A DNA stretch of 64,000 bases from a virus, in IMG/VR virus record IMGVR_UViG_3300045988_175722, positions 1 through 64,000 of that record, one strand, 5' to 3'. The notes below the pieces were generated by a model. The model did no database searches, was not told the origin of the DNA, and saw only the letters and a program-made list of their open reading frames with translations. Both the position numbers and the translations under genes were made by a program. Shown in pieces: positions 4,185-17,621 of this stretch; position 1 is the first letter of the stretch, and the number at the start of each line of letters is the position of its first letter.

Positions 4185-4607
4185 CAAACGTAAAACAAAA
4201 GATAATGGTTTTACATTTGATCTTTGACTTATTTACATATTATATATAACTGAAGGCGGTTATTTAAAATCGCAAACGAATTGAACGTGTTTAATGAGTA
4301 GCAAATACTTATTAATAGATATATAAGGATTTTTGCCGTTAACCTTCAGGAAACGGCGGGTACTAAACATTAGGCTATTATAAAGAAATGTAGCGAGCTA
4401 TTTTGCAATGTATCTTATTATAGGCGCGGGCGTTATTTGGAGTACTGCAACGGCCGGAAACGGTAACAACACAAGCCAAATAGAAAATAAAATACATTAT
4501 ATTATAGACGGTGAAAACATTTAGCTTTTTGAAAAGGGGCAGTTCCTTTTATAGCCGCAAAAAGTAAACAATAAATAAAGTATTAAACAATTAAATTTTT
4601 AAAAGTT

Positions 4608-4976
4608 ATGAAAAAGAATGTAGTAATTTCAAGTGTAGCTGCTATTGCAGCAATGAGTCCAGAAGGTTTTACTGTTAACGCTGCAAAATTGCAGCCGGTC
4701 ACTTCAGGCTACGCTGTAGCATTGAAGCGCACACAAAACAGTTTTGGCGCTGAGGGCCTGGCAAAGGTAGTAAATGTTATTGAGGAACTCCAGGCTTCAG
4801 GCAAATTGGCCGGCCGCACCCTGGCGTTCGGCGGCTGGTATGATTCAGAAAGCGGACTTTATTATTATGATGCCACCGTGATTTTCCAGGATCGCGCTGA
4901 AGCTATTGAGGCGGGCCGTGCAAATGATCAGATAGCAATTTTTGATCTTGCAAATCTGGAGGAGATCCGCTTGTAA
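4608..4976 (+). CDS. hypothetical early protein
   Basis: 122-aa ORF. It is the first ORF after promoter 4153-4184 and is preceded by a degenerate Leader-A (TATTAAACAATTAAATTTTTAAAAGTT-ATG). Confidence 0.65.
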   Translation: MKKNVVISSVAAIAAMSPEGFTVNAAKLQPVTSGYAVALKRTQNSFGAEGLAKVVNVIEELQASGKLAGRTLAFGGWYDSESGLYYYDATVIFQDRAEAIEAGRANDQIAIFDLANLEEIRL

Positions 4977-5008
4977 TATATAGTTAACGGGACCGTTCCG
5001 GCGGTTCC

Positions 5009-5038
5009 TATTATAGGAACATTTTAAAATTTAGAATC
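5009..5038 (+). promoter_or_regulatory. Leader-A copy (TATTATAG-N22-ATG)
   Basis: TATTATAGGAACATTTTAAAATTTAGAATC then ATG 5039. Core start to ATG is 30 nt. A CGGAACGGTCCC/GGGACCGTTCCG-type hairpin region lies just upstream. Confidence 0.6.
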
Positions 5039-5287
5039 ATGAAGGAATTTTTAAAGGTATTATCAAATATGCAAGTAATGAGTTTTATTCTTGTTATTAT
5101 TCCCGTACCTTTTTTGTTGGGTGTTTTTGTTGCCGCTTACGATCTAGTATTTAACGAAGTAGCTAAAAAGCAGATAGCAATCGAAAATTTGTTGTTACTG
5201 TCTGTCATTGCCATCTTGATGTATGTTATTTTTGGCATGATGTTTAAGATGGATTATAACGACACAAAACGAGAATTAGGCAAATAA
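5039..5287 (+). CDS. small membrane protein
   Basis: 82-aa ORF with two hydrophobic helices (FILVIIPVPFLLGVFVAAY, LLLLSVIAILMYVIFGMMF). Leader-A upstream. Confidence 0.7.
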   Translation: MKEFLKVLSNMQVMSFILVIIPVPFLLGVFVAAYDLVFNEVAKKQIAIENLLLLSVIAILMYVIFGMMFKMDYNDTKRELGK

Positions 5288-5334
5288 CATAGGTAGAATT
5301 ATATAAGATACGAACATTTAAAAATATAGAAATT

Positions 5335-5772
5335 ATGGCTACAAAAAGATATAATAACAAGGATTTTGAGTTCACAGTTAACGGCGAACGTATTAGTTTT
5401 TATTGCTGGACTACAGACACAAAAAACGGTTTTTGTCATCATGTTTACGCTGTAGGTGGCGGCAAAGATTACGAACACACCCGTGTATCATATTACAACC
5501 GTACTTGGGAATCGTTTGAGTACGAAAGCGCACTAAAAAGCGCGGTTGCTAAGTTCCGTAAATGTTTTCGTGAACCTTTGCGCCTAGAGCTCCAGGCTAT
5601 TTCTTTAGGTGAAGGGGAAAAGGCGGAAAAATTTGTCCAGGCGTTTAAGGCTAATTTTGCGGCACTGAGTGACAAGCAAAAGAAATTTGTGCGTGATCAT
5701 ACACCAGTTATTAATAACATGAACCAGGCTAAAATGGTTAGTACGGCGGTTGCAATGTTAGCAGCTATCTAA
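5335..5772 (+). CDS. hypothetical early protein
   Basis: 145-aa ORF. A degenerate Leader-A (GAACATTTAAAAATATAGAAATT-ATG) lies upstream. Confidence 0.7.
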   Translation: MATKRYNNKDFEFTVNGERISFYCWTTDTKNGFCHHVYAVGGGKDYEHTRVSYYNRTWESFEYESALKSAVAKFRKCFREPLRLELQAISLGEGEKAEKFVQAFKANFAALSDKQKKFVRDHTPVINNMNQAKMVSTAVAMLAAI

Positions 5773-5783
5773 TGATGATATAT

Positions 5784-5834
5784 CAGGGTGCAAAGGTAGC
5801 CAGGCCAGAACGGCGGACCATTCCCGCCGGCACC
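5784..5834 (+). repeat. R-element copy 1 (structured intergenic repeat)
   Basis: CAGGGTGCAAAGGTAGCCAGGCCAGAACGGCGGACCATTCCCGCCGGCACC. Inner stem CGGCGG/CCGCCG with a 7-nt loop; outer GGTGC/GCACC. Confidence 0.8.
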
Positions 5835-5837
5835 CCC

Positions 5838-5868
5838 TATTATAGAACAATTTAATTTTTGAAAAGTT
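5838..5868 (+). promoter_or_regulatory. Leader-A copy
   Basis: TATTATAGAACAATTTAATTTTTGAAAAGTT then ATG 5869 (31 nt). Confidence 0.6.
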
Positions 5869-6012
5869 ATGGCAAAGATCACAAAGGAAATGGAATACAA
5901 CGAGCTCGCAAAGTTCGGGGAGTGTTTACCCGCTGTGCCTAAAAAAAACGGTGCCCTGGCTCCTCCAGGGTACCCACAAAATAACCATATTATAGAATCT
6001 TTAAAATATTAG
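5869..6012 (+). CDS. small hypothetical protein (47 aa, below ORF-track cutoff)
   Basis: Hand translation gives MAKITKEMEYNELAKFGECLPAVPKKNGALAPPGYPQNNHIIESLKY with stop TAG at 6010-6012. A canonical Leader-A sits at the correct distance. Confidence 0.55.
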   Translation: MAKITKEMEYNELAKFGECLPAVPKKNGALAPPGYPQNNHIIESLKY

Positions 6013-6016
6013 GATC
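5988..6016 (+). promoter_or_regulatory. Leader-A copy (overlaps the 3' end of the previous small ORF)
   Basis: TATTATAGAATCTTTAAAATATTAGGATC then ATG 6017 (29 nt). Confidence 0.55.
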
Positions 6017-6277
6017 ATGAATAAAAGTAATATCACCTTTTCACGCCGTACCAGTACGGCGGATTTATTAAGCGTATTATTTGCCGTGTGTGCCCTTCTT
6101 TTTGTGCGCATGACTAAATGTATCTTTGCGGCTGCAAAAAGCGCATGGAGCTGGTTATTTGCACCAAAAACGTACTTTGCAAGCGACGGCGAAGGGGTGA
6201 CAGTAAACGGGCTGCAATTTATAGGCATTAATTTAATTGCCGCGGCCGTGTGTGTGTTGTTATCAGTATCTTTATAA
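6017..6277 (+). CDS. small membrane protein
   Basis: 86-aa ORF with hydrophobic segments (LLSVLFAVCALLFV, INLIAAAVCVLLSVSL). Leader-A upstream. Preferred over the antisense ORF 6001..6294. Confidence 0.65.
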   Translation: MNKSNITFSRRTSTADLLSVLFAVCALLFVRMTKCIFAAAKSAWSWLFAPKTYFASDGEGVTVNGLQFIGINLIAAAVCVLLSVSL

Positions 6278-6305
6278 AGATATTCTTTTTTCAAACTTTA
6301 AATAT

Positions 6306-6356
6306 CAGGGTGCAAAGGTAATCAGGCCAAAACGGCGGATCATTCCCGCCGGCACC
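6306..6356 (+). repeat. R-element copy 2
   Basis: CAGGGTGCAAAGGTAATCAGGCCAAAACGGCGGATCATTCCCGCCGGCACC. Confidence 0.8.
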
Positions 6357-6359
6357 TTC

Positions 6360-6389
6360 TATTATAGAACATTTTAAAAATTAGGAATT
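6360..6389 (+). promoter_or_regulatory. Leader-A copy
   Basis: TATTATAGAACATTTTAAAAATTAGGAATT then ATG 6390 (30 nt). Confidence 0.6.
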
Positions 6390-6590
6390 ATGGAAACTAT
6401 CTTTATATCTTCAAAAGATTATAGCCACGAAGACATGGCGGAAATCTATTTGGGCCGTCGAGCCGCTGAAGAAGGGTACCAAAGTATTTGGGATCTTATT
6501 TCAGACTTACCAAACAGGACACCAAAGGAAAAGCGGAGCGGGTTCGGTATCTGGTCTTTATGTTTTAAAAAACAGGGTGCAAAGGTTTGA
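6390..6590 (+). CDS. hypothetical early protein
   Basis: 66-aa ORF with Leader-A upstream. Its last 6 codons (KQGAKV) are encoded by R-element copy 3. Confidence 0.6.
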   Translation: METIFISSKDYSHEDMAEIYLGRRAAEEGYQSIWDLISDLPNRTPKEKRSGFGIWSLCFKKQGAKV

Positions 6591-6622
6591 GGCCAAAATG
6601 GCGGATCATTCCCGCCGGCACC
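6573..6622 (+). repeat. R-element copy 3 (overlaps the CDS 3' end)
   Basis: CAGGGTGCAAAGGTTTGAGGCCAAAATGGCGGATCATTCCCGCCGGCACC. Confidence 0.75.
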
Positions 6623-6689
6623 TTCTAATAAGGTGATAAAAGCCGCTATTATAGCGGCTGCAAAATATCACCAGGGAATTAATGAAATA

Positions 6690-6718
6690 TATTATAGAAC
6701 ATTTAAATTTTTAGAGTT
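6690..6718 (+). promoter_or_regulatory. Leader-A copy
   Basis: TATTATAGAACATTTAAATTTTTAGAGTT then ATG 6719 (29 nt). Confidence 0.6.
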
Positions 6719-7105
6719 ATGAAGACTTTTCATTTTAGTTACACTGTGACCCCTTCCGAATCATACGACAAGGAAGGCGACGTAAAAAGTGCGGATTTTT
6801 GGATTGATATTAGAAATCAGCATAGCGAGATCCAGGCGGAAAACCTGAAGGAGGCGTGCCAGGCATTCAGCGAGATTTTAAGTCGTAATTGGTGTATAGA
6901 TTTAACCAAAAACGGTATCAAAACCGCTACAGGTATATATCGAGACACCGACGAAGGAGCGGAACAAATAGGCCTTGTATTTAAGGCGCGCACGGAGGTT
7001 GAATTTGATTACGTTTATAAAAGACGTAATATTCAGGTATGGGCATCTATTCGCGAGGAGTTCATTCCAGATTTCGAGAAAGAAGGATTTAAGTCTTCAT
7101 TATAG
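6719..7105 (+). CDS. hypothetical early protein
   Basis: 128-aa ORF with Leader-A upstream. Confidence 0.7.
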   Translation: MKTFHFSYTVTPSESYDKEGDVKSADFWIDIRNQHSEIQAENLKEACQAFSEILSRNWCIDLTKNGIKTATGIYRDTDEGAEQIGLVFKARTEVEFDYVYKRRNIQVWASIREEFIPDFEKEGFKSSL

Positions 7106-7124
7106 AGTATGTGATTTATCACCC

Positions 7125-7154
7125 TATTATAAAACATCTAAAATATTAAGCAAT
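7125..7154 (+). promoter_or_regulatory. Leader-A copy (variant TATTATAA)
   Basis: TATTATAAAACATCTAAAATATTAAGCAAT then ATG 7155 (30 nt). Confidence 0.55.
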
Positions 7155-7550
7155 ATGGCAAAGATAACATTAAAAGACGTATCAGGCACTCCGGAGTTTG
7201 CACCCGCAAAGTGCGATATTTTCCCGAAGGATAAATTCCAGGAGGCAAAGAGACTCTTTGCCCGTGTGATTAAACAGACTTGCGAAGATGGTAAGAAGAA
7301 GACGGCTAACTACCTGAAAGGTTTGATAGTTTGCGCTGATATTCCAGCAGCAGAAAAGGGCAAATATAACAATGCCCTGGCGATGCTGGCCAACGGCGGC
7401 GATCGTGCGAACGGTTCCGGATCATTCACGGTTAACGATATAACCGGAGAAAGTTATCTTTATGTAGCCGCAAACGGCGCATACTGCATCGCGCAATATG
7501 ACTACAGCGACGGAATCAAATTATCATACCTTCAGATTATTGAAGGTTAA
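7155..7550 (+). CDS. hypothetical early protein
   Basis: The track ORF 6975..7550 is trimmed to the internal MAKITLKD start, which sits exactly 30 nt after a Leader-A core. This removes the overlap with 6719..7105. 131 aa. Confidence 0.65.
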   Translation: MAKITLKDVSGTPEFAPAKCDIFPKDKFQEAKRLFARVIKQTCEDGKKKTANYLKGLIVCADIPAAEKGKYNNALAMLANGGDRANGSGSFTVNDITGESYLYVAANGAYCIAQYDYSDGIKLSYLQIIEG

Positions 7551-7572
7551 GAAAAAAAAAAGAATATCACTC

Positions 7573-7602
7573 TATTATAGAACATTTTAAATTTTACGAA
7601 TT
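7573..7602 (+). promoter_or_regulatory. Leader-A copy
   Basis: TATTATAGAACATTTTAAATTTTACGAATT then ATG 7603 (30 nt). Confidence 0.6.
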
Positions 7603-8430
7603 ATGGAAGCAAAGATAAATTTTGAGAATATCCAGAACGAGGACCAGGAGAAAATCATGACTAGATATAAGGAACTGGCAGCAGATAGTGGCGACGTGTA
7701 CGCCTGGCAGACTAGCAAAGATACTCCACCTTCAGCCCGTACCTTCAGCAGCGAGGAAAACGCGAAGGAGTACGAAGTATTGAACAATGAACGTTTGCGC
7801 CGCTGGCTAGGTGATCGTGTACTCGCAAAATCCTATATTATAGGCACGGAAAAAGATTACCTGAACGCGGTGAAAAATTGGGAACATGACCGCGCAAAGA
7901 TGGAGGCTAAACAATACGCCGAACATGTTGCAAAGGTAGTAGATGTTTACCAGCAGCAAATAAAAGCCCTGGAGGCGTTAAAACCCGTTTGCCGCACCTT
8001 TGACGGCAAAGTGATAAATAAGCGCTTCAATGAGGCAGTAAAAGCCGCTACGGGCTTTTCTTGCTACTTTGAGGATAACAGCATGAGTTTATATAAATAT
8101 AATTGTGCCGGTCCTTATGAGAAATTTGACATTTATCTCTATTATAGAGATTATGAAGGAATGGAGAATTTCTGGCAGTGGACCACGGGCGACCGTATGG
8201 AGGCAGAGAAGGCCGTATCTATTATGGATATAAAGATAAATAAGCTTCAGAAGGATATTCAGCGACTCCAGGGCACCAAGAAAGAATACGCAAAGTACGT
8301 GGCAAAGGTGCGCAAAGTGGAAAAACTCATCGATGAACTTCGCTGCGAGAATATGGATATGCGCTATTTTGCGATGGAGCATGACCTGAAAAAATATCCT
8401 TTAGTTTCCAGTATTTGGAAGTGTTATTAA
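7603..8430 (+). CDS. hypothetical early protein
   Basis: 275-aa ORF with Leader-A upstream. Charged, coiled-coil-like central part. Confidence 0.75.
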   Translation: MEAKINFENIQNEDQEKIMTRYKELAADSGDVYAWQTSKDTPPSARTFSSEENAKEYEVLNNERLRRWLGDRVLAKSYIIGTEKDYLNAVKNWEHDRAKMEAKQYAEHVAKVVDVYQQQIKALEALKPVCRTFDGKVINKRFNEAVKAATGFSCYFEDNSMSLYKYNCAGPYEKFDIYLYYRDYEGMENFWQWTTGDRMEAEKAVSIMDIKINKLQKDIQRLQGTKKEYAKYVAKVRKVEKLIDELRCENMDMRYFAMEHDLKKYPLVSSIWKCY

Positions 8431-8443
8431 ACACGCGGGGCAG

Positions 8444-8462
8444 CCCTGGGCATCACCCAGGG
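8444..8462 (+). terminator. hairpin between cassettes
   Basis: CCCTGGG / CATCA / CCCAGGG. It is followed by GCACC and then Leader-A, the same junction as in the R-elements. No T tract. Confidence 0.4.
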
Positions 8463-8466
8463 CACC

Positions 8467-8524
8467 TATTATAGAACATGTGAATTTTTACTATATTATA
8501 GAACCATTTAAATTTTGAGGATTT
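8467..8524 (+). promoter_or_regulatory. Leader-A, duplicated core
   Basis: TATTATAGAAC at 8467 and again at 8494. ATG 8525 is 31 nt from the second core. Confidence 0.6.
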
Positions 8525-9232
8525 ATGATTAATACGAAATTATATGTAGATATTTTGAGCGACCAGGCAAAGGAAGACGGGCGACCACACGAGATGGCGC
8601 TGAGTGATTTCTGTGATTACCTTCTGGATTTATTCAGCGAGGAGGCATTCCGCGGCGGAACCCAGAATTTTATAAACTGGTATCAGGAACGTGTGATAGC
8701 CAAGCCAAATTTCGCTATCCTTGCCGCTACCTGGCTAAACGATGTGGCTGCATCAATGAAAAAAGGCGATTGGCTTGACGTGTTCGGAACCCTCTATGAG
8801 GATATGTATCTATCACCGGGTAAGGCTTCCCAGACGGGGCAATTTTTCACTCCTCATGACATTTCAGATCTGATTAGTGATATTATAGTCCCTGCGGAAA
8901 ATCAGGCTTCATGCCCTAAGATTTCAGGGAATCGTGTGAATGATTGTGCAGCCGGAAGCGGCCGTCTCCTTCTGTCGCACTTCGCAAAGGTTAGCCGTAA
9001 GAATCCGTACGGAGGCCGTCGATATAAGTATGTAGCCCAAGACTCTGATCCGCTGGTATGCAAGATGTGCGCGCTGAACATGATGGCGCACGGCATGAAC
9101 GGAACGGTGATTTGTCAAAACACCCTGGCATTAAATACCCCTTCCGTGATATACCACATCAACGGCATAAGGTACCCGTTTATCACACCTTATTATAGCG
9201 TACGTACAGTATCAGGGAATCCTAAGAAATAG
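8525..9232 (+). CDS. HsdM/N6_Mtase-like protein lacking a canonical catalytic motif IV
   Basis: 235-aa ORF. GQFFTPHDISDLISDII (motif X), VNDCAAGSGRLLL (motif I) and YVAQDSDPLVCKMCALNMMAHGMNGTVICQNTL follow the gamma-class N6-adenine methylase order. RYPF stands where NPPF/Y is expected, and the ORF ends 16 aa later. Confidence 0.6.
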   Translation: MINTKLYVDILSDQAKEDGRPHEMALSDFCDYLLDLFSEEAFRGGTQNFINWYQERVIAKPNFAILAATWLNDVAASMKKGDWLDVFGTLYEDMYLSPGKASQTGQFFTPHDISDLISDIIVPAENQASCPKISGNRVNDCAAGSGRLLLSHFAKVSRKNPYGGRRYKYVAQDSDPLVCKMCALNMMAHGMNGTVICQNTLALNTPSVIYHINGIRYPFITPYYSVRTVSGNPKK

Positions 9233-9241
9233 GATTCCCTG
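9213..9241 (+). terminator. perfect 11-bp hairpin over the stop codon of 8525..9232
   Basis: CAGGGAATCCT / AAGAAAT / AGGATTCCCTG. No T tract. Confidence 0.45.
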
Positions 9242-9257
9242 GCAATAAAAAGAAACA

Positions 9258-9286
9258 TATTATAGAACATTTAAATTTTTAAGGTT
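9258..9286 (+). promoter_or_regulatory. Leader-A copy
   Basis: TATTATAGAACATTTAAATTTTTAAGGTT then ATG 9287 (29 nt). Confidence 0.6.
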
Positions 9287-9931
9287 ATGGAAAAGAAGAA
9301 GGAATTAGATGTATCAAACATCAACCTGGTAAGTTTTGAAGGTTTCTACCAGACGATCTGGTGCCCGGAGTTCGAGATTTCAGATTATGAACTCGAAAAT
9401 GAAGTGGAGGAAGACAAGGATTTCACCTTTAACAATGACGGGTACGAAAAGGCAATTAGCGAGGCTTACGCCCAGCAGTGGGAGCGCTGGCTTCAGCAGT
9501 ATATTTGCAAGGATATAAAATTATCCTTCGTAGGCGTTCAACATCCACTTTTCTACAATTATAGTACTGATACCATCCAGGTAAAAATCGGGCTTACCAA
9601 TGAAGCAAAGAAGGCTATTATGGCAAAGGTAAAAGAACATCGTAAAAAAATAGGTACCTGGATTGAGCAGGGCTTTACGTCTTATGATGGCTTTTTCTCA
9701 AATTTGAGTCACTACAGAAAAGACTGGAACCGCCGCAGCTTCTTTGATCACAGCGAAAAGAACCAGGAGTCATATTTGGCCTATATTCTCTACTTCCTGG
9801 TGTTAGCTGAAGTCTATAAAAAAGATGGTTCTACTAGTGATAGCCTGGAAATGCAGGCTTACTGGAATATCAGTGAACAAATAAGCATCGCTGAGTTTAT
9901 CACGTACCTAGGCAACAATAAGGCAGCGTAG
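9287..9931 (+). CDS. hypothetical early protein
   Basis: 214-aa ORF with Leader-A upstream. Confidence 0.75.
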   Translation: MEKKKELDVSNINLVSFEGFYQTIWCPEFEISDYELENEVEEDKDFTFNNDGYEKAISEAYAQQWERWLQQYICKDIKLSFVGVQHPLFYNYSTDTIQVKIGLTNEAKKAIMAKVKEHRKKIGTWIEQGFTSYDGFFSNLSHYRKDWNRRSFFDHSEKNQESYLAYILYFLVLAEVYKKDGSTSDSLEMQAYWNISEQISIAEFITYLGNNKAA

Positions 9932-9939
9932 CGCTGCCC

Positions 9940-10002
9940 TATTATAGCCCATCGGAAAAATTAGAAATCACCCATTATAGAACATTTAAAATATTAGGAA
10001 TT
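9940..10002 (+). promoter_or_regulatory. Leader-A, duplicated core
   Basis: TATTATAGCCC at 9940 and CATTATAGAAC at 9973. ATG 10003 is 30 nt from the second core. The hairpin GCAGCG/CGCTGC lies just upstream. Confidence 0.6.
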
Positions 10003-10992
10003 ATGGCAAACAAAGTTACAGACTTATTCAAGAAGTCTTCATCATACGATAAGAAACATATTAAGAATTTGAGCACAAAGAAGGTTCCGGCAGCACTGCT
10101 GCAGGCAGTAGAGAAGGGATGCAGCATTGAAGCCCTGGAGAAGCTGGCAAAGGGCTTCCCTATCTGCAAATATCAGACTCAGATTACCGTCCACGGCATC
10201 TTCGATGATCCGGGTACCCGATGTGTAGGCGCTTACGTAAACTTGACGAAAAACAAAAACCAGTCACTAGGCATCAGATGGACCGCCATCGACCACAAGA
10301 AGAAAGAGAAGCTCTTCCACTATATTTCTGCAGCGGATGGAGAATGGCGAATCCTGGAGGACAGCAGCAGTTTTTATATCCGAAAAATGGTACGCGTACC
10401 AGGCAGAGAAGCCGGGCTAAAAGCTTTGGAAAAGTATCAGGCGGAGGCGGAAAAGATAAATGTAAATCTTTTCACAGGTAGTGCCAGTGCGTTCCGACAG
10501 GTGAACATCTGGGGCATGGTGTACGTTTGTCTTGTATTGGACATCCAGTGTTTCCCTGAAGGCAATTTATGGCAGATAGCGGAGAATATCACGGGCAAGA
10601 AAAAAGCGGAGATCCTGGCAGTAGAAGCAGCAAAGACGGCGGAGGAAAAGAAACGTAACGAAGAGTATGAGGCAGAATTGGGAAAGAATCGCCTGAAAAT
10701 TGCGCTCAGATTCAAGGCGTACGAGGAGCGCCGCGAAGCTTGGAAGGCAAAGAATCCAGCCCCTAAGAGTTTTCAGAAGATGGTAAATTACACCTTCAAG
10801 CCGGGAGATATTGAGCTAACAGAACCGTATGAACTCGGCGACAAATCAGGTTTTGCGTACCGCTATCGCACCTATTACAAGTGCTTCGGCAAGTTATGCC
10901 GCTGCCTGTGCGATATAAACGGAAAGCGCCTGGAACGTGGCAGTGAGGTATGGAAGCCGACAGTGGCGGAAGCATACGTCAAGACGGCGTAA
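10003..10992 (+). CDS. hypothetical early protein
   Basis: 329-aa ORF with Leader-A upstream. Confidence 0.75.
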   Translation: MANKVTDLFKKSSSYDKKHIKNLSTKKVPAALLQAVEKGCSIEALEKLAKGFPICKYQTQITVHGIFDDPGTRCVGAYVNLTKNKNQSLGIRWTAIDHKKKEKLFHYISAADGEWRILEDSSSFYIRKMVRVPGREAGLKALEKYQAEAEKINVNLFTGSASAFRQVNIWGMVYVCLVLDIQCFPEGNLWQIAENITGKKKAEILAVEAAKTAEEKKRNEEYEAELGKNRLKIALRFKAYEERREAWKAKNPAPKSFQKMVNYTFKPGDIELTEPYELGDKSGFAYRYRTYYKCFGKLCRCLCDINGKRLERGSEVWKPTVAEAYVKTA

Positions 10993-11021
10993 ATATTCAC
11001 CCTTTATAGAATATGTAGAAA

Positions 11022-11378
11022 ATGAAGAAATCATCAATTATATATAATTTCGCTATCTCGCAGCAGGATGGCAAGACCATCCTGGCTGCCCAGGAGTACC
11101 CGTGGAGTGTGCTCCAGGTTATCACCTTCGACCCAAAGTACTTCGATAAGGTAGTGCAGCTTTTCAAGCGCCGCGGCATGGTAGCCGCCCACGACAAGGA
11201 CCGCTCATTCTGTATCATCCATCTTTGCAGTGGAGATCAGGGCAGGAAATATCCAGATAAGCACATCGACACTGATACGCCAGCGGCTATCAACAAATAT
11301 CTGGAGGCACTGAAAGATGCGATGGCGCAAGCAGTGGTTTGGTATTTTACGAATATTATAGAACGTGTGAAAAATTAG
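11022..11378 (+). CDS. hypothetical early protein
   Basis: 118-aa ORF. Short degenerate leader (CTTTATAGAATATGTAGAAA-ATG). Confidence 0.65.
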   Translation: MKKSSIIYNFAISQQDGKTILAAQEYPWSVLQVITFDPKYFDKVVQLFKRRGMVAAHDKDRSFCIIHLCSGDQGRKYPDKHIDTDTPAAINKYLEALKDAMAQAVVWYFTNIIERVKN

Positions 11379-11383
11379 AAATT
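11354..11383 (+). promoter_or_regulatory. Leader-A copy (inside the 3' end of the previous CDS)
   Basis: TATTATAGAACGTGTGAAAAATTAGAAATT then ATG 11384 (30 nt). Confidence 0.55.
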
Positions 11384-11660: not shown

Positions 11661-11690
11661 TATTATAATAACATTTAAAAATTAGAAATT
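11661..11690 (+). promoter_or_regulatory. Leader-A copy (variant TATTATAA)
   Basis: TATTATAATAACATTTAAAAATTAGAAATT then ATG 11691 (30 nt). Confidence 0.55.
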
Positions 11691-11816
11691 ATGGAAGCAA
11701 AGAGTAATAATAAGAACGGTATGAACGTTATAGAGAATGTAGAGAACGAAATGCAGGTGACAGAAGAGAGCCGCAAGGCATACGGCCGACCATCCGTTAA
11801 CGAGGCGAAAGGATGA
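11691..11816 (+). CDS. 41-aa ORF ending at a TGA that is in frame with the next ORF
   Basis: Hand translation gives MEAKSNNKNGMNVIENVENEMQVTEESRKAYGRPSVNEAKG, with TGA at 11814-11816. Leader-A upstream. Confidence 0.45.
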   Translation: MEAKSNNKNGMNVIENVENEMQVTEESRKAYGRPSVNEAKG

Positions 11817-11891
11817 AAGCTGGATCACGTTATCCCTTTCGATTTTTATCATAATGCCTACATCAAGAGCCGCAAGGGCATCGACGAGCTT

Positions 11892-12251
11892 GTGGAGATG
11901 GTGCTGAAGGAGTGCAATATCAGCCTGGATGATACCAGCTCATGGGCAAAGGACATCCGTATTATTACCAAGTATGAAATCATGACGTATGACAAGCAGC
12001 TAGATGAAAGCGAGGAAACTCCCGACGAGTGGAATCGAATCGTATCAGGGCAATCGATAGGTGACTCTATCGAGTTACGCAATGAGGCTTACTCCACTGC
12101 TGAAGGTTTCGCTCCTCATACCTTTGAGGAAATGAAGGAGGAATATATCCGAGAAGGAACCTGGACAAGATTCCTCGCATTAAACAGCATGACGGAGGCG
12201 GAATGCAAAGAATACCGTGATAGCCGCTACGGTAATCTATATGAAGCCTAG
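11892..12251 (+). CDS. hypothetical protein, possibly the C-terminal part of a gene interrupted at TGA 11814
   Basis: 119-aa track ORF (GTG start) in the same frame as 11691. The frame is open from 11817, and this ORF has no leader of its own. Confidence 0.55.
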   Translation: MEMVLKECNISLDDTSSWAKDIRIITKYEIMTYDKQLDESEETPDEWNRIVSGQSIGDSIELRNEAYSTAEGFAPHTFEEMKEEYIREGTWTRFLALNSMTEAECKEYRDSRYGNLYEA

Positions 12252-12297
12252 AAGGATATATTATAACCATACGTTATAGATTATATTATATATCACA

Positions 12298-12540
12298 CGA
12301 GGGGAGTTTGCTCCCCTACCCCGTCCGGCAGACCGGCAAAAGCGGAGCGACACCGCCACGGGGTGCGTTATTTTAAACATAACTTTAAAATTTTAATTGT
12401 TCGCGCTGAAGCGTCAGCGCGGTGTTTAGTTTTACTCGCTGCCTGCGGTCCGGGAGGATAGCAGCAGCAAATTTCGCCCATGGTTGGCCGAGGATGATAT
12501 ACTTCATCCTTCAGGGTCCGAATCCCTGGTGGGTGACAAG
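12298..12540 (+). other. GC-rich, hairpin-dense non-coding island
   Basis: GGGGAG/CTCCCC (12301-12316). ACCCCG...CGGGGT (12318-12364) encloses CCGG-CAGA-CCGG and GCGG-N7-CCGC. CGCGCTGA/TCAGCGCG (12402-12421). T-arm-like CAGGG-TCCGAAT-CCCTG (12512-12528). Confidence 0.4.
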
Positions 12541-12633
12541 AGAAAAAGAAGATAAAAAAGGTAGCAAGAATTTACTTTGAAAATAAAACAAAGGTTAAAA
12601 ATGCACCTAAAATAGCATTTTAAGTGCATTTTA

Positions 12634-12665
12634 TTTGGTAGTTTCAGAAATTCTTTGTACCTTTG
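12634..12665 (+). promoter_or_regulatory. Bacteroidota-type promoter heading the Leader-B gene block
   Basis: TTTG 12634-12637 (extended TTTGGTAGTTTC), 20 nt, TACCTTTG 12658-12665. An imperfect palindrome lies just upstream at 12602-12630. Confidence 0.65.
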
Positions 12666-12713
12666 CATCAGAAATAAAACAAGAAGATAAATAAAAACAA
12701 TAATAATCATTTT

Positions 12714-12746
12714 AGCCCTAGCGCATCACGGTTAAGCGACGAACGT
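12714..12746 (+). promoter_or_regulatory. Leader-B copy 1 (5' stem-loop)
   Basis: AGCCCTA GCGC ATCACGGTTAA GCGA CGAACGT then ATG 12747. CGC/GCG pair. Confidence 0.65.
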
Positions 12747-13013
12747 ATGAAGACAATGTTAGAAGAAGAGTTGATTAAGACAGGTTATCGTTATCGTGAA
12801 AACGATGATAACTCCTTCGATGTATGCTACGACCATTCTCAGGATTCATTTTTTGACGGTATCAGTTCGTATCATGTAGCAACCGTTAAAGAGGATGATG
12901 ATCTCTGGTACATTGACAATAATGAAGGTGCCGGCTGGGGCGAATATCCTAAAGCAGACTGGAGTTTATCAAAGGCCATCTATGATCAGTGTATCGACGA
13001 ACACATCAATTAA
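12747..13013 (+). CDS. hypothetical protein
   Basis: 88-aa acidic ORF with Leader-B upstream. Confidence 0.7.
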   Translation: MKTMLEEELIKTGYRYRENDDNSFDVCYDHSQDSFFDGISSYHVATVKEDDDLWYIDNNEGAGWGEYPKADWSLSKAIYDQCIDEHIN

Positions 13014-13033
13014 TAACTATTATCAATCATCTA

Positions 13034-13067
13034 AGCCCTAAGCGCATCACGGTTAAGCGACAAGAAT
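13034..13067 (+). promoter_or_regulatory. Leader-B copy 2
   Basis: AGCCCTAA GCGC ATCACGGTTAA GCGA CAAGAAT then ATG 13068. Confidence 0.65.
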
Positions 13068-13397: not shown

Positions 13398-13405
13398 TCA
13401 CATTC

Positions 13406-13439
13406 AGCCCTAGGCGCATCACGGTTAAGCGCAAGCGAT
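13406..13439 (+). promoter_or_regulatory. Leader-B copy 3
   Basis: AGCCCTAG GCGC(13414-17) ATCACGGTTAA GCGC(13429-32) AAGCGAT then ATG 13440. Confidence 0.65.
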
Positions 13440-13805
13440 ATGAAAACAATTTCCTTTAATTTGAATTTTGTAGAAATCCAAGCCTTGCTTACATCTATTA
13501 TCAATATAGATAAGTTGATGGGTGTGCATGATTGTTCAGATCAAGACTATCCACGAACACCGCAGGAGGTAAAGATTGCGGTTGCCATCGAGTTGAAGGC
13601 GATGGGCGTGCTAGCCTACGACCTCGACAATATCACCGACAAGACCCGCGATACCTTGGAAAACCGAGGATATACGGGAGAGTGGCAGGACGAACACGAA
13701 ACCTTCTGGCTGAAAGGGCAGTATGTATGGGTACGAGTAAGAATGCTCTATAAGACAGACGGAACGCCTGTTATAGCTTTGGAGGCAAAAGCTAATAATC
13801 AATAA
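13440..13805 (+). CDS. hypothetical protein
   Basis: 121-aa ORF with Leader-B upstream. Confidence 0.7.
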   Translation: MKTISFNLNFVEIQALLTSIINIDKLMGVHDCSDQDYPRTPQEVKIAVAIELKAMGVLAYDLDNITDKTRDTLENRGYTGEWQDEHETFWLKGQYVWVRVRMLYKTDGTPVIALEAKANNQ

Positions 13806-13819
13806 TACATTTATAGTTC

Positions 13820-13853
13820 AGCCCTAGGCGCATCACGGTTAAGCGCGAACAAT
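13820..13853 (+). promoter_or_regulatory. Leader-B copy 4
   Basis: AGCCCTAG GCGC(13828-31) ATCACGGTTAA GCGC(13843-46) GAACAAT then ATG 13854. Confidence 0.65.
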
Positions 13854-14444: not shown

Positions 14445-14481
14445 CATCGGAGATTTTTTACTAGATTTAGTAACACATTAT

Positions 14482-14512
14482 AGCCCTCGACATCACGGTT
14501 AAGTCAGTAGAT
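14482..14512 (+). promoter_or_regulatory. Leader-B copy 5 (stem GAC/GTC)
   Basis: AGCCCT CGAC(14488-91) ATCACGGTTAA GTCA(14503-06) GTAGAT then ATG 14513. Two stem positions are changed on both sides. Confidence 0.65.
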
Positions 14513-15466
14513 ATGAAAGCGATTACGAAAAGCGGAACTGCTTACGATGTGAAGTTTCAAAATAATAAAGACCCTTTCTGTTTATATCTATGCGAGAAGG
14601 ACGGAAGAGCATTATCTTGGCAAGATTTTGACGGTCTTATAAACATATCCGGAGAATGGTATCATTGTCTTATGAAGGTTGGAATATCCAATAATGAGGC
14701 AATACCGGCTGTTTGTTTGTGCCAAGATGCAAAAGACGCTTTGGGCCTGAACACCAAAGAAAGTGTATATATCCGTCTTGATTCTACCCCTAAAGAAGAG
14801 TTTAATGCTTTTTATAGAGAAGTACTCAAGTCGATTAAAGAAAAAGCAAAGGATTTAAGTTTTACTTACATAGAGTTTACTGATGATTTCATTTGCGGTA
14901 GCGACTGTGCGGAAAACTACAGATTCCTTTATTTCAACGAAAAGGCGTTAAACATCTTGAATGCTTTTAAGGCAATAGATAAGTTTGAGGACAGATTGAA
15001 GTTTACGTCGTGCTTTGAAGGACATGATACGACCTATCGTGTCGATGATACGAATATGGATAAACTTTTTGCGCTTGCTGCTCCAAAACTTAAAGAGGTT
15101 GAGGAGAGAAAGGAAAAGAATGCAATAAAGAATGAGAAGATCAGAAGAGTTAAAGAGGCTATAGAAAATGGCGCTATCTCTTTTCACTGCGAATCGGCAC
15201 CACATGACGAAGATTTGAGTGAGGCCATTTTAACCCGTCCTTGTCCTAATTCAGGTACCTTCACCTTGACGCATCGCATACCTGCCGAAGTGTTCTCAAA
15301 GATAAAGAAATTCGGTGTGTATTACAACGACGATTTCTTAGAGGAGTGCGATATGTTCTGGTCTGTTCCTGGATGGCGTTTCGGGAAGGAAGCTATTGAA
15401 ACCTTGTTGCGTGATAACTTCAAGGTGTTTGTAGATTACGAAGAAGTTTCTCTGACCAAAGATTAG
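14513..15466 (+). CDS. hypothetical protein
   Basis: 317-aa ORF with Leader-B upstream. Confidence 0.75.
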   Translation: MKAITKSGTAYDVKFQNNKDPFCLYLCEKDGRALSWQDFDGLINISGEWYHCLMKVGISNNEAIPAVCLCQDAKDALGLNTKESVYIRLDSTPKEEFNAFYREVLKSIKEKAKDLSFTYIEFTDDFICGSDCAENYRFLYFNEKALNILNAFKAIDKFEDRLKFTSCFEGHDTTYRVDDTNMDKLFALAAPKLKEVEERKEKNAIKNEKIRRVKEAIENGAISFHCESAPHDEDLSEAILTRPCPNSGTFTLTHRIPAEVFSKIKKFGVYYNDDFLEECDMFWSVPGWRFGKEAIETLLRDNFKVFVDYEEVSLTKD

Positions 15467-15477
15467 GAAACGAAAAA

Positions 15478-15517
15478 GCCCCGACCTAAGCCGGGGCACC
15501 GCGAGCCTTCCGGCTCG
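15478..15517 (+). terminator. tandem GC hairpins after 14513..15466
   Basis: GCCCCG-N8-CGGGGC (15478-15497) then CGAGCC-TTCC-GGCTCG (15502-15517). A further hairpin, CAGACTTTTGAAAGTCTG, lies about 55 nt downstream. Confidence 0.5.
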
Positions 15518-15614
15518 AATCTACTATAGTAGAAATTTGGCTCTCTAAGAGCGTTTAAATCCGCAGACTTTTGAAAGTCTGACCGTCAACGGAAGCTCTA
15601 TGTTTCTTTCTATT

Positions 15615-15660
15615 CCATAAAGGTACGATTAAATCAATATCCATAAAGGTACGATTGAAT
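15615..15660 (+). repeat. direct repeat CCATAAAGGTACGATTRAAT x2
   Basis: 15615-15634 and 15641-15660, 19/20 identical, period 26. The 11-mer AAGGTACGATT recurs immediately before the rep ATG (21166-21176). Confidence 0.8.
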
Positions 15661-15748
15661 GATCTTCCGAAGACGGGTGCAAATTTAAGAAATAAAATAA
15701 TACGGTGCAAGTATTTGCCCAAAAAATTATAGAATTTTAAGTTTTAAA

Positions 15749-15781
15749 AGCCCTACCGCATCGCGGATAAGCGGAATAAAG
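15749..15781 (+). promoter_or_regulatory. Leader-B copy 6 (stem CCGC/GCGG)
   Basis: AGCCCTA CCGC(15756-59) ATCGCGGATAA GCGG(15771-74) AATAAAG then ATG 15782. Confidence 0.6.
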
Positions 15782-16060
15782 ATGTTTAAGATATTGCACG
15801 CCTTCCTTGATTATCCCTTCTGCTCGTTCGAGTTTCTGAACCTCGATACCCAGGAGCATATATTTGCTTCATTCTTCGATGATCCTCTTTATGAGCTTCT
15901 GAAAGAGTGCGGAGTGAATTACGACCACGAGTTGGAAGGGAAGATAATAGAGAAGATTCCGTCCGATCTGCGCATACATACCAAGGAGTATGCCGTTATC
16001 AGGGCGCAACAGCATTTGGAAGGTTCCTGGTTCTTTCCTTGGTTAAAGAAGAAAAAGTAA
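15782..16060 (+). CDS. hypothetical protein
   Basis: 92-aa ORF with Leader-B upstream. Confidence 0.7.
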   Translation: MFKILHAFLDYPFCSFEFLNLDTQEHIFASFFDDPLYELLKECGVNYDHELEGKIIEKIPSDLRIHTKEYAVIRAQQHLEGSWFFPWLKKKK

Positions 16061-16071
16061 TATAATCATTC

Positions 16072-16104
16072 AGCCCTACCGCATCACGGCAAAGCGGAAA
16101 AGAT
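16072..16104 (+). promoter_or_regulatory. Leader-B copy 7 (stem CCGC/GCGG)
   Basis: AGCCCTA CCGC(16079-82) ATCACGGCAAA GCGG(16094-97) AAAAGAT then ATG 16105. Confidence 0.6.
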
Positions 16105-16290
16105 ATGGAGATCAATAAAACAACGAATAAGAAAGGTCGCCCCGCAGCAGAGGGCAAGGTTCATAAGTATGTAGTGCCCGATGATGTGCACGACTGGATT
16201 TCAAAGCATGGGGGCAGTAGATATATCACTGATACTTTCCGAGCTATCAAGGCTGTAACCTTGCAGGCTCAGGAAAATCCTTCTTTATAA
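16105..16290 (+). CDS. small basic protein
   Basis: 61-aa ORF with a basic N-terminus (KKGRPAAEGK). Leader-B upstream. Confidence 0.65.
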   Translation: MEINKTTNKKGRPAAEGKVHKYVVPDDVHDWISKHGGSRYITDTFRAIKAVTLQAQENPSL

Positions 16291-16312
16291 CATCGGTGAA
16301 ACATCACCGATG
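16291..16312 (+). terminator. 9-bp hairpin directly after stop of 16105..16290
   Basis: CATCGGTGA / AACA / TCACCGATG, flanked by conserved TATAACATCGG ... GCTGCGATAAAA. Confidence 0.45.
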
Positions 16313-16364
16313 CTGCGATAAAAATATAATATCAATATTAATACTTTAAAGATTATAGGCAATT

Positions 16365-16487
16365 ATGAAAAAAGCAATTACTTACTCTCTTGCAGCCCTC
16401 GCCTTCGTAGGCGTAGCCGTGCTGCTCTTCTCTACCATCGGCGTAGCAGTGTTCTTCCTCCCACTTCTGGCAGGAGCATTCAAGTAA
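16365..16487 (+). CDS. 40-aa hydrophobic peptide (below ORF-track cutoff)
   Basis: Hand translation gives MKKAITYSLAALAFVGVAVLLFSTIGVAVFFLPLLAGAFK with TAA at 16485-16487. AT-rich leader AAAGATTATAGGCAATT-ATG. Preferred over antisense ORF 16382..16582. Confidence 0.5.
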   Translation: MKKAITYSLAALAFVGVAVLLFSTIGVAVFFLPLLAGAFK

Positions 16488-16690
16488 GATATAACAATTT
16501 TAATACTTTCGATTTTAAAGATTATAAGATAACTGTGCCAACGGGGAGAAATAATGGCGCAGGTGCGAAGAAAATGCACCATCTGGTTGGCGTAGCAGTA
16601 AAAGCTATGCCGCCACCCAGGTGCTAGCCAGCAAAAAAAAAGCGCGAAGGTATATAATAATTCCGGAAACCTTTGCGTTACTTAGATATA

Positions 16691-16720
16691 TATTATAGAA
16701 CAATTTTAAAACTTAGAATT
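16691..16720 (+). promoter_or_regulatory. Leader-A copy
   Basis: TATTATAGAACAATTTTAAAACTTAGAATT then ATG 16721 (30 nt). Confidence 0.6.
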
Positions 16721-17530
16721 ATGGAAGAAGACGGAAAAGTAATATGGGCTATTCCTTGCGCTGATCATGCTATCTTTATAGATACGAATGGCTACCTATC
16801 GGAACGTTATGGCATGGCCAGTGTGATGGGTAAATATGGTGAAGAAATTAATTTTATTGATGAGGACGGGCTAACAATGGAACCGTATGGTAATATGCCA
16901 TCAGATTCTATTATCGGAAGACGCGGCGAAACCATTCCTATTTGTCGCTTGAGTGAAGCGGTTGCTTATACTCTCGATGTAGAATCGATATTTTTTGATT
17001 TGGACGAGTTAGGCTTGAACGTAGATGTTTCAAGTATGAAGCAGACCCTAGAAGTTCATTTTATACGCAATAATGCCACACAAAAGCCTACTTATAGTAT
17101 GTATATTAATATTAAGGATGGAGCGGTTGTATTTGATGATCTTTCTTACAACTTCGTGTATATGGATAATCTGGAGTGCGTTGGCGTAAAATTTATGCAA
17201 GATAGAGATATTGATCCGCGCCGTTTGAGCGGAAGTGTCATCCAGTATCTATATGAATACAGCTGCTATCGTGATGCCCTGGTCGATGTTGAGATATATT
17301 TCGATAAGAGGATTTATTGCGGTGTGTGTGATGATAAGGATGCAGCATACAATAAGGAAGTTTACGCTGATGAGGAGAAATATCTGGGTAAATTACGTAA
17401 GTACGTTCGCGATACATTGAAAAAAATGTGGGATGAGCACAAAAATGAGGCAGCTCGTATCAAGGATTACCAGAAAGCAAGGCTGCAGGTTGCCAGCAAG
17501 TACGATAAGGACCCTAACCTGATAGAGTAA
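16721..17530 (+). CDS. hypothetical protein
   Basis: The track ORF 16673..17530 is trimmed to MEEDGKV at the Leader-A distance. 269 aa. Confidence 0.7.
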   Translation: MEEDGKVIWAIPCADHAIFIDTNGYLSERYGMASVMGKYGEEINFIDEDGLTMEPYGNMPSDSIIGRRGETIPICRLSEAVAYTLDVESIFFDLDELGLNVDVSSMKQTLEVHFIRNNATQKPTYSMYINIKDGAVVFDDLSYNFVYMDNLECVGVKFMQDRDIDPRRLSGSVIQYLYEYSCYRDALVDVEIYFDKRIYCGVCDDKDAAYNKEVYADEEKYLGKLRKYVRDTLKKMWDEHKNEAARIKDYQKARLQVASKYDKDPNLIE

Positions 17531-17621
17531 GAAACAACTACGTTATAGCATCGGGGAGGAATGACTGATTTCTCCCTCGCTGCGACAAAATTATAATATA
17601 AACTTTTAAATTTTTGGGCTT

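Follow-up and report, generated by a model that had tools for sequence, protein, structure and literature searches.

Two described families of phage repeats tie a conserved sequence to the start of a gene. The promoter-early stem-loop (PeSL) cassettes of T4-type phages are composite intergenic modules in which stop codon, stem-loop, promoter-like motif, ribosome-binding region and start codon follow one another; they occupy a plastic region full of small ORFans in one orientation, and the junctions of insertions, deletions and replacements fall at the modules (Arbiol et al. 2010, PMC2839356; Comeau et al. 2014, PMC4122927). The start-associated sequences (SAS/ESAS) found in mycobacteriophages of Cluster K, to which no role has yet been assigned, are asymmetric and family-specific; they occur in 11-19 copies in one orientation, within the non-structural genome region only, and stand a short, fixed distance ahead of the ATGs of unrelated genes, half of them with an extra upstream inverted repeat (Pope et al. 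2011, PMC3203893; PMC12699233). Here, we analyze a locus that resembles both in these respects. It lies in a stretch of 64,000 nucleotides (nt; hereafter the window, whose first letter is position 1), positions 1 to 64,000 of IMG/VR virus record IMGVR_UViG_3300045988_175722, which is part of one genome of an abundant, uncultured family of ~100-kb tailed phages. Its central element is a leader of about 30 nt, the class-1 leader, whose core stands at a nearly constant distance before the start codons of an array of genes, and a second, hairpin-forming leader, class 2, precedes the genes of an adjoining array.

The first-pass annotation of this DNA, made from the letters alone, had reported a leader at a fixed distance before at least 13 genes, and both a mismatch scan and a position weight matrix (PWM) bear it out. 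In all 13 primary copies, which are clustered on the plus strand, the start of the core lies 29, 30 or 31 nt from the A of the ATG. The 11-mer TATTATAGAAC, with at most one mismatch allowed, has 13 matches in the window against 1.7 expected, a number reached in none of 100 shuffles, and 12 of the 13 are on the plus strand between 5838 and 16691. An exact 11-mer on the minus strand at 62347 was set aside as a chance match, because it lies within the tape measure open reading frame (ORF) and has no leader context. The 26-nt PWM recovers, at 24-38 bits, the cores at 5009, 5838, 5988, 6360, 6690, 7125, 7573, 8467, 8494, 9258, 9973, 11354, 11661 and 16691, so that the strong cores are found on the plus strand only, between 5009 and 16691; on both strands of the window it gave nothing comparable outside these positions, and shuffles gave 0.24 matches above 10 bits. 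Weaker PWM matches lie at 4578 (11.1 bits), 11002 (13.8 bits) and 17592 (12.1 bits), and the degenerate versions announced before 4608, 5335, 11022 and 17622 are all present.

The exact leader 18-mer leads to many IMG/VR contigs of 87-108 kb, each of which has 8-10 matrix matches on one strand within ~10 kb, and more than 80 related contigs were brought in by protein-based retrieval (L-numbers, such as L057, denote these fetched relative loci). Seven of the loci, L262-L268, fetched with a 225-aa protein, were set aside as unrelated phages that have one domain in common. The class-1 leader is nearly unchanged in more than 60 related viral contigs of ~100 kb, whose proteins are 45-90% identical. 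Across 191 unique copies from the relatives, core positions 1-9 are invariant at 95-100%, leader positions 21-30, which lie outside the matrix, are still conserved, and the ATG comes at 28-32 nt in 87%. At 178 orthologous gene starts, the mean protein identity is 73%, that of the 31-nt leader 81% without gaps, and that of the 40 nt further upstream 48%. In distant relatives, with proteins 35-58% identical, the core is kept as (T)ATTATAGA(A/C)C or TTATAAACC, and TTATA lies 27-31 nt from the ATG (a variation of ~2 nt) although the 3' half has drifted. Since the conservation of the leader exceeds that of the proteins, these comparisons indicate that selection acts on the element itself, with the core and the spacing as its most constrained features. 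In the degenerate copies before 4608, 5335, 17622 and the 810-aa gene of L257, the 3' part is kept and TATTATA is lost. A literature search found neither leader motif sequence.

The fixed register can be understood from the way in which Bacteroidia start translation. Flavobacterium johnsoniae, like other Bacteroidia, does without Shine-Dalgarno pairing; adenines are over-represented from -14 to -11, and those at -3, -6, -12 and -13 are positive determinants of initiation (Baez et al. 2019, PMC6847099). Aligned on the ATG, the class-1 leaders have A at -14, -13 and -12 with frequencies of 0.92, 0.93 and 0.75, purines from -7 to -3 and then two T residues (-2 and -1). Similarly, the class-2 loop ends on its 3' side in an invariant AA, which falls at -13/-12 or -12/-11 in 114 of 145 copies. 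Both leaders thus put adenines at the known Bacteroidia determinants, which explains the fixed distance from core to ATG, and on this alignment the 3' part of both is best read as a standardized Bacteroidia initiation region. They have in common with the initiation regions of Bacteroidia the A at -12/-13 within an A-rich -14 to -11, the A at -3/-6 and a low degree of structure around the start. However, what is a statistical tendency in the host regions is frozen here in two near-identical portable modules, one of which includes a conserved hairpin of a kind not described for the host regions. Two other readings were rejected: leaderless transcription from the ATG, as there is no -7-like element at the right place, and a degenerate TAnnTTTG box in the second half of the leader, as its register is inconsistent between copies.

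The class-2 leader consists of AGCCCU, a stem of 3-4 bp, the loop AUCACGGUUAA (also given as AUCACGGNNAA), the return strand, 8-10 nt and the ATG. Seven copies on the plus strand (12714-12746, 13034-13067, 13406-13439, 13820-13853, 14482-14512, 15749-15781 and 16072-16104) fill the class-1-free gap of 12.7-16.1 kb and precede the gene starts at 12747, 13068, 13440, 13854, 14513, 15782 and 16105. The stem covaries (GCGC/GCGC, CCGC/GCGG, GAC/GTC), and the covariation seen in 38 copies was reached in none of 500 shuffles. Among 145 unique copies, the positions beside the invariant closing C-G are paired in 98% and 97%, against 72% and 50% in shuffles; the pair types include GC, AT, CG and GT, and the stem has 3 bp in 92 copies and 4 bp in 46. 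A degenerate class-2 pattern occurs in at least 119 IMG/VR stretches (loci L429-L546 among them). Among the matches listed, the ATG follows AGCCCU at 25-35 nt in 144 of 154, and most lie on contigs of 5-167 kb without class-1 leaders. In a porcine gut microvirus of 4.5 kb (L547, MT135448), one copy (1917-1946) follows a TAccTTTG box at a distance of 21 nt. From this position behind a promoter box it follows that the class-2 element works in the 5' untranslated region (5'UTR), probably with the help of host machinery. The class-2 genes clearly form a polycistronic unit: most of the intergenic gaps measure 42-68 nt (one is ~315 nt), and neither a conserved -10-like element nor hairpins were found in them. 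With its compensatory pairs and its 5'UTR position, class 2 is an element of the RNA type, which argues that the fixed-distance leaders of these phages work in the 5'UTR. Rfam gave no match at gathering thresholds in the window and two chance-level matches (E ~0.9) in 4-18 kb. Pairing of the loop with the 3' domain of 16S rRNA was set aside because the varying loop positions do not preserve it. The class-2 hairpin may be a more novel object than the class-1 leader.

Both arrays are headed by promoters of the host type. Full promoters of the pattern TTTG-N(17-21)-TAnnTTTG occur on the plus strand of the first 27 kb at 1693, 4153, 12634 and 25396 only; the one at 4153-4184 (TTTGCG-N-TAccTTTG) heads the class-1 array and the one at 12634-12665 (TTTGGTAGTTTC...TAccTTTG) the class-2 array. 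Intergenic plus-strand hairpins with U-rich tails were found at 12401 and 18689, where the units end, and as a weak 5-bp site at 16413. The accessory region is thus made up of two long operons that start at 4153 and 12634 and end at 12401 and 18689. Most of the 13 relatives that were mapped have the same order of promoter, 8-13 class-1 leaders, promoter and 3-6 class-2 leaders, and some have one or two class-1 leaders after the class-2 array. A promoter stands at the position equivalent to 4153 in 12 of the 13, the locus of L051 beginning inside the array, and no canonical promoter was found inside an array in the window or in most of these relatives. Exceptions to the layout are L257, with a single strong class-1 leader, L041, with three, L043, with one class-2 match, and L032, with one extra match to the promoter pattern within the class-2 array. 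As the first-pass annotation had stated, the class-1 motif is distinct from the Bacteroidota -33/-7 consensus: TTTG...TAnnTTTG is found neither in it nor at a fixed distance from it. The annotation had overlooked that each array has a host-type promoter at its head, the second leader class and the match to the Bacteroidia rule of adenines at -12/-13. Canonical Bacteroidota promoters also occur on the minus strand at 3484 and 25461, and three canonical promoters have an extended -33 block, TTTGGTAGTT(T/G)C, in common.

The hairpins set the two classes apart. A GC hairpin had been noted before most class-1 copies, and in the window it precedes 9 of the 13, with a dG of -12 to -41 kcal/mol. In the relatives, a hairpin with a dG of at most -10 kcal/mol lies within 50 nt upstream in 65% of 228 class-1 contexts, against 7% of 171 class-2 contexts by the same criterion. 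This tie to class 1 links the core to a transcript boundary and not to translation alone. About half of the class-1 hairpins lack a U tract and are followed instead by A-rich spacers of 10-18 nt, so that they look like stabilizers of RNA 3' ends and not like intrinsic terminators. Their sequences are unrelated to one another except for one triplicated element.

The leaders are also the seams along which the gene content of the arrays changes, as had been proposed. The number of fetched loci that have a given array gene ranges from 1 to 28. Leader windows, which make up 10.6% of the region, contain 51% of the alignment ends (alignments of at least 250 bp; ~5-fold enrichment). Distinct clean gene-absence events in the relatives have both ends in leaders in 9 of 14 cases; here, the two flanking alignments share 10-51 nt of the relative, which places the junction inside the shared repeat. 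For example, the gene at 5039-5287 is absent from 6 loci (junctions 5031/5035 to 5312), that at 9287-9931 from 3 loci (junction 9297/9974) and that at 10003-10992 from at least 16 loci (junctions 9984-10000/10994-11004, overlap 10-48 nt), while five genes, from 5879 to 7572, are absent from L009. The leader also offers short homologies for the deletion, insertion and exchange of genes, as its 30 nt are repeated ~13 times in a single orientation. The spare cores reported at 8467 and 9940 are indeed there, the latter as a hybrid: at 9940-9972, TATTATAGCCC, a class-1 core is joined at ...ATAG to a decayed class-2 start (TATTATAGCCCATCGG), after which comes a class-1-like tail. The junction ...ATTnnAG is common to both leader classes, and the leader before 14513 also starts with cATTATAGCCCT. 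To judge from their sequence, the tandem leaders at 8467/8494 and the hybrid look like scars of cassette events.

The same comparisons bear on gene starts and small ORFs that had been revised with the motif as a ruler. The starts set at 7155 and 11384 gain support, because cassette junctions of the relatives fall in their leaders: in the loci that have the gene at 7155-7550 (L035, L051 and L042) the alignments begin exactly at 7125, and insertions near 11354-11383 join within that leader. The start at 16721 has the motif as its basis. The small ORF at 5869-6012 is conserved in 11 loci. In contrast, the 41-aa ORF at 11691-11816 is not a separate gene but the N-terminal part of a 186-aa one: it ends at an in-frame TGA (11814-11816), the frame stays open to 12251, and all 22 relatives aligned there have TGG (Trp) at this codon. 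The TGA is a nonsense allele or a sequencing error.

How far do the described systems cover this locus? PeSL promoters match the host sigma-70 consensus (-35, -10 and AT-rich upstream sequence) and were shown to be active. Here, in contrast, the core lacks the Bacteroidota -33/-7 consensus, canonical host promoters stand at the heads of the arrays only, and the distance to the ATG is fixed. The PeSL parallel drawn by the first-pass annotation therefore holds for the architecture of hairpin, conserved motif and gene start, and not for a host-consensus promoter within the module; as far as its sequence goes, the class-1 module appears to work like a PeSL but fails its defining feature. SAS is a 13-bp sequence, GGGATAGGAGCCC, that lies 3-7 bp from the start and has a Shine-Dalgarno core, whereas the class-1 core lies at -30 to -20, has an unrelated sequence, and belongs to another host phylum in which the host makes no use of Shine-Dalgarno pairing. 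In addition, ESAS repeats do not covary, unlike the class-2 hairpin. The class-1 leader is thus a functional analogue of SAS and not a member of that family.

Our preferred reading, which we hold tentatively and to which we give a little less than an even chance, is that the class-1 module may serve as punctuation between the cistrons of operons driven by host promoters, and would combine a stabilizer hairpin for 3' ends, a core that generates 5' ends and a standard initiation region. Almost every cistron of the first operon is introduced by such a module: often a GC hairpin without a U tract, then the core, then a short AU-rich stretch that sets AAA at -14 to -12 from the AUG, with purines from -3 to -7, in the Shine-Dalgarno-independent manner of Bacteroidia. 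The module would act on the RNA. The core would be a specific endonucleolytic or entry site at which the 5' end of the mRNA of each cistron is created, the hairpin upstream would shield the 3' end of the preceding segment, and the 3' half of the leader would bring in the ribosome at a fixed geometry. We infer, in other words, that the core is transcribed and cleaved or bound, and does not serve as a promoter. Several features speak for this reading: each array has one host-type promoter and one canonical terminator, the sister array is polycistronic, the spacing is constrained, both leader classes agree with the Bacteroidia rule, A-rich spacers stand behind about half of the hairpins, cassette junctions fall in the leaders, and neither a sigma factor nor an RNA polymerase was detected in the window or in ~40 kb of a relative. 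Furthermore, the loss of TATTATA from the leader of the first cistron (4608) and from other degenerate copies would be expected if the core were needed for internal 5' ends only.

Phage T7 provides a precedent for punctuation of this kind, as its polycistronic early mRNA is processed at RNase III hairpins. Both cases have one or a few host-type promoters, a long early transcript punctuated between cistrons, and hairpins at the 3' ends of the segments. However, T7 RNA is cut inside the hairpin by a double-strand-specific enzyme, whereas the cleavage that we propose would fall in a single-stranded AU-rich 11-mer beside variable hairpins.

Several points weigh against punctuation by cleavage. A 10-bp, near-invariant, TATA-like and -10-like core before many genes is the classical signature of a phage promoter. 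To our knowledge, the bacterial endoribonucleases that act on AU-rich RNA are loosely specific, so the model needs an extra specific factor. A near-core, TATTATAGAG, lies at ~8141 (8141-8160: TATTATAGAGATTATGAAGG) inside the ORF 7603-8430, with an ATG 3 nt later; a cleavage site would be awkward there, and the case bears on the question whether the core suffices by itself. Before the gene at 16721 there are 400 nt of gap that contain the weak terminator-like site 16413 and no host-type promoter, an arrangement for which a promoter core is the easier explanation. Finally, almost all of the proteome is unannotatable, which makes a missing match to a sigma factor or polymerase weak evidence.

The strongest alternative, which we regard as possible but on balance doubtful, is that the modules are true PeSLs, that is, internal phage-specific promoters. 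In this case, TATTATAG(AAC) would be a -10-only or TATA-like promoter, read either by host RNA polymerase redirected by a phage protein (a sigma factor like gp55 or phiEco32 gp36, or an appropriator) or by a phage polymerase. Transcripts would start a few nt downstream, leaving a 5'UTR of 15-20 nt, the hairpins would attenuate read-through, and the host-type promoter at 4153 would express only the first gene or genes, the factor included. No part of the leader is more strongly conserved than the core (0.95-1.0 per position), which persists at 35-58% protein identity while the 3' half drifts. It has TAnnnT followed by AG, as well as TATA(A/G)A, and is similar both to the T4 late promoter TATAAATA and to the TATAG of T7 and SP6 promoters. 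The G of the core lies 22-24 nt from the ATG, close to the spacing of 26-38 nt that separates the G of TAnnTTTG from the ATG in the host-type promoters of the window. Such phage motifs are promoters as a general rule, and the association of hairpins with class 1 is as in PeSLs (PMC2839356). The promoter reading also accommodates the gene at 16721 after its long gap, and the near-core at 8141 would be harmless to it.

Against internal promoters stand the absence of a -33 element and of any conserved block upstream of the core, the canonical terminators at the operon ends in contrast to the class-1 hairpins, about half of which have no U tract, and the sister array, which runs seven genes from one promoter. 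In addition, a tight core-to-ATG spacing over long divergence is not something that a promoter requires. Phage promoters of the -10-only type, such as T4 late TATAAATA (gp55) and phiEco32 TAATGTATA (gp36), are likewise short, near-invariant, AT-rich single blocks without a -35 upstream of many genes, but their recognition depends on phage sigma factors that have been identified, and their distance to the start codon is not fixed. Here, a Pfam search of the window and of ~40 kb of the rest of a relative's genome, which left ~6 kb of that genome unseen, detected neither a phage sigma factor nor a phage RNA polymerase, and the two-barrel RNA polymerase motif D[FYW]DxD was found in neither stretch. 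A polymerase fused to the tape measure, as in P23-45, was considered and dropped for want of a catalytic motif. As for the first array gene (4608-4976), a place where the promoter reading would put the factor, its product has a generic alpha/beta fold (AlphaFold model confidence, pLDDT, 79) with no PDB match at E <0.3, and the model is uninformative. The first-pass annotation had placed a transcript 5' end at the core and had named a phage-specific sigma factor or polymerase, or else RNA processing, as its source: the class-1-specific hairpins fit such an end, by initiation or by processing, and the phage sigma factor or polymerase was not found. The crAss-like phage phi14:2 was also considered as a parallel and discarded, since its early genes lack a common motif and its middle promoters resemble those of the host.

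It is tempting to join the two leader classes in one reading, although we consider this speculative and rather unlikely. Both leaders would be portable expression modules for a phylum whose ribosomes ignore Shine-Dalgarno sequences, with class 2, which many unrelated gut viral contigs and the microvirus have in common, as an undescribed RNA docking directly on the Bacteroidota 30S subunit and the class-1 core as the site of a specific cutting or starting factor. Within this joint reading, class 2 could, for example, mimic a Shine-Dalgarno duplex and present A-12/A-13, the stem ending 7-10 nt before the AUG, and the class-1 factor might be either a nuclease or a sigma-like protein of a new kind.

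In a third view, the asymmetric 11-bp core would be a stoperator-like DNA site, bound by a phage protein such as the Cro/CI-type helix-turn-helix (HTH) repressor-like protein encoded at 1119-1616 on the minus strand, and binding would silence or block the transcription of accessory genes in a carrier or plasmid-prophage state. The L5 repressor acts in such a way at many oriented intergenic stoperators. L5 stoperators are mentioned in the work on Cluster K phages (PMC3203893). The site is indeed asymmetric, intergenic, in one orientation and in many copies, and the repressor-like gene, together with ParA, a Rep3-like initiator and centromere-/iteron-like repeats, suggests a plasmid-like temperate life style. 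However, all copies lie in one 12-kb array (positions 4.6-17.6 kb in the window of 64 kb) and not genome-wide, a lock of 29-31 nt to start codons and a coupling to hairpins are not properties of stoperators, and the core is unchanged across relatives with divergent proteins, while operators usually track immunity groups. We therefore consider this view improbable.

Finally, a dedicated recombination site of the integron attC or HUH type, at which a specialized recombinase would cut and join hairpin and core, is highly improbable: it would suit the array of small ORFs in one orientation, the hairpins beside a conserved core, the gain/loss junctions at the element and the hybrid scar joined at ...ATAG (9940-9972), but the hairpins are not conserved in sequence and are absent from 35% of copies, there are no inverse core sites (RYYYAAC / GTTRRRY, as in attC), no integrase or HUH enzyme was found, with one sub-threshold match to Phage_int_SAM_5 and no integrase domain above threshold, the junction overlaps of 10-51 nt fit ordinary homologous recombination between repeats, and the fixed ATG register and the A-tract point to an expression signal.

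Along the plus strand, the class-1 array begins with a non-coding insertion at 4200-4560, which was recognized from the sequence and the alignments of relatives and contains small hairpins and three orphan cores (4376-4510), as had been reported for this untranslated stretch. It is missing in L032, L043 and L025, where the alignments of 3931-4200 and of 4560 onward abut or overlap and the promoter leads straight into the leader of the first gene, and these 360 bp are probably a decayed cassette. The first cistron follows a degenerate leader at 4578-4607 that keeps the 3' half and has lost TATTATA. A hairpin at 4989-5008 (-12.5 kcal/mol) abuts the leader at 5009-5038 (TATTATAGGAAC...; ATG at 5039), and the degenerate leader at 5305-5334 keeps GAACATTTAAAAATATAGAAATT with an interrupted core (ATG at 5335). 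Next comes a Y-shaped hairpin at 5786-5835 (-24.5 kcal/mol) with the leader at 5838-5868 (ATG at 5869), then a hairpin at 5950-5974 (-19.0 kcal/mol) with a leader at 5988-6016 that lies in the 3' end of the ORF 5869-6012 (ATG at 6017). A second copy of the Y-shaped hairpin, at 6307-6358 (-23.0 kcal/mol), precedes the leader at 6360-6389 (ATG at 6390), and a third, at 6574-6624, is followed by a hairpin at 6632-6672 with TATTATAG in its loop and by the leader at 6690-6718 (ATG at 6719). This 50-nt Y-shaped GC element thus occurs three times, each time just upstream of a class-1 leader, and its copies are 83-95% identical to one another and in relatives.

The leader at 7125-7154 (TATTATAAAAC) has no hairpin and sets the start at 7155, and that at 7573-7602 precedes the ATG at 7603. 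A hairpin at 8443-8463 (-19.9 kcal/mol), the spare leader at 8467-8493, which has no ATG, and the functional leader at 8494-8524 introduce the gene at 8525, which encodes an N6-methylase-like fragment; by Pfam and PHROGs, the products of all other array genes are of unknown function, so that the early, host-takeover or anti-defence roles suggested by the first-pass annotation gain no support. A hairpin at 9212-9242 (-20.5 kcal/mol), an A-rich spacer and the leader at 9258-9286 precede the ATG at 9287, and a hairpin at 9922-9938, the hybrid scar and the leader at 9973-10002 precede that at 10003. A short degenerate core at 11002-11021 (CTTTATAGAAT) stands before the ATG at 11022, the leader at 11354-11383 overlaps the 3' end of the ORF 11022-11378, and the leader at 11661-11690 introduces the 186-aa gene at 11691-12251. 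The operon ends at the terminator-like hairpin with a U-rich tail at 12401-12432. Between the operons, 12290-12545 is GC-rich, apparently structured and non-coding, and contains GGGTCCGAATCCCTG, which is like a tRNA T-arm; ARAGORN detected no tRNA in it and Rfam nothing. Behind the class-2 array, a hairpin at 16641-16679 (-14.0 kcal/mol) precedes the class-1 leader at 16691-16720 of the gene at 16721, and a degenerate leader at 17592-17621 the ATG at 17622. The second operon ends at a palindromic terminator-like hairpin of 18-19 bp at 18689-18732. Outside the arrays, another short leader, AAAGATTTATAGA(G/T)(A/T)(A/T)T-ATG, is found before the gene starts at 20368, 36053, 48258 and 50142.

The rest of the window is that of a tailed phage. 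It codes for the terminase large subunit (TerL; 50853-52856, minus strand), a 1226-aa primase/TOPRIM-like protein, a DnaN clamp, two methylases and a holin. The tape measure ORF (58196-64000, plus strand) has at least 1935 aa and continues past the end of the window, its counterpart in the relative L057 having 2257 aa; a 208-aa ORF on the minus strand within it (63307-63933) is probably spurious. The window also encodes ParA (parA at 19449) and the Rep3-like initiator (21177-22634), and the stretch just upstream of parA (18750-19410) contains about eight direct repeats, TTGGTACGATGG(N)GCATTTGCAC in form, that look like those of centromeres or iterons. Together with the HTH repressor-like gene and the lack of an integrase, they suggest a plasmid-like prophage state and a temperate life style. 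In ~40 kb of the rest of the genome of the relative (L057, L269, L349 and L260), a tape measure protein, a tail fiber and an S49 protease-like protein are encoded; a LysR-type regulator and a beta-ketoacyl synthase in its late region (L269 14125-15030; L349 19420-20628) are unusual cargo for a phage.

A megablast search of 4-18 kb against GenBank phages gave no match, and TerL and the primase have remote matches only, to Polaribacter and Microcystis phages; thus, the phage is not crAss-like and has no cultured relative. The canonical promoters of the window point to a host of the Bacteroidota type. When the leader 18-mer was compared with genome contigs, single chance matches were the only ones among the matches listed, and they indicated no host or prophage. 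The first array gene (4608-4976) has 569 homologues in public metagenomes, all of them unnamed.

The architecture described here has precedents in the PeSL and SAS elements, and the mechanism is our proposal. For the annotation of these phages, the leaders provide a ruler with which gene starts can be corrected, and they are a concrete case, outside the T4-like phages, of regulatory repeats that act as seams of accessory-gene exchange. Bacteroidota are the dominant Gram-negative bacteria of the gut, and the early gene expression of their phages is almost unknown. How initiation proceeds without Shine-Dalgarno pairing is still an open question, for the study of which this family offers two compact, conserved leaders of fixed register. 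If these leaders work as proposed, they would constitute ready-made parts for the control of gene expression in gut Bacteroidota.

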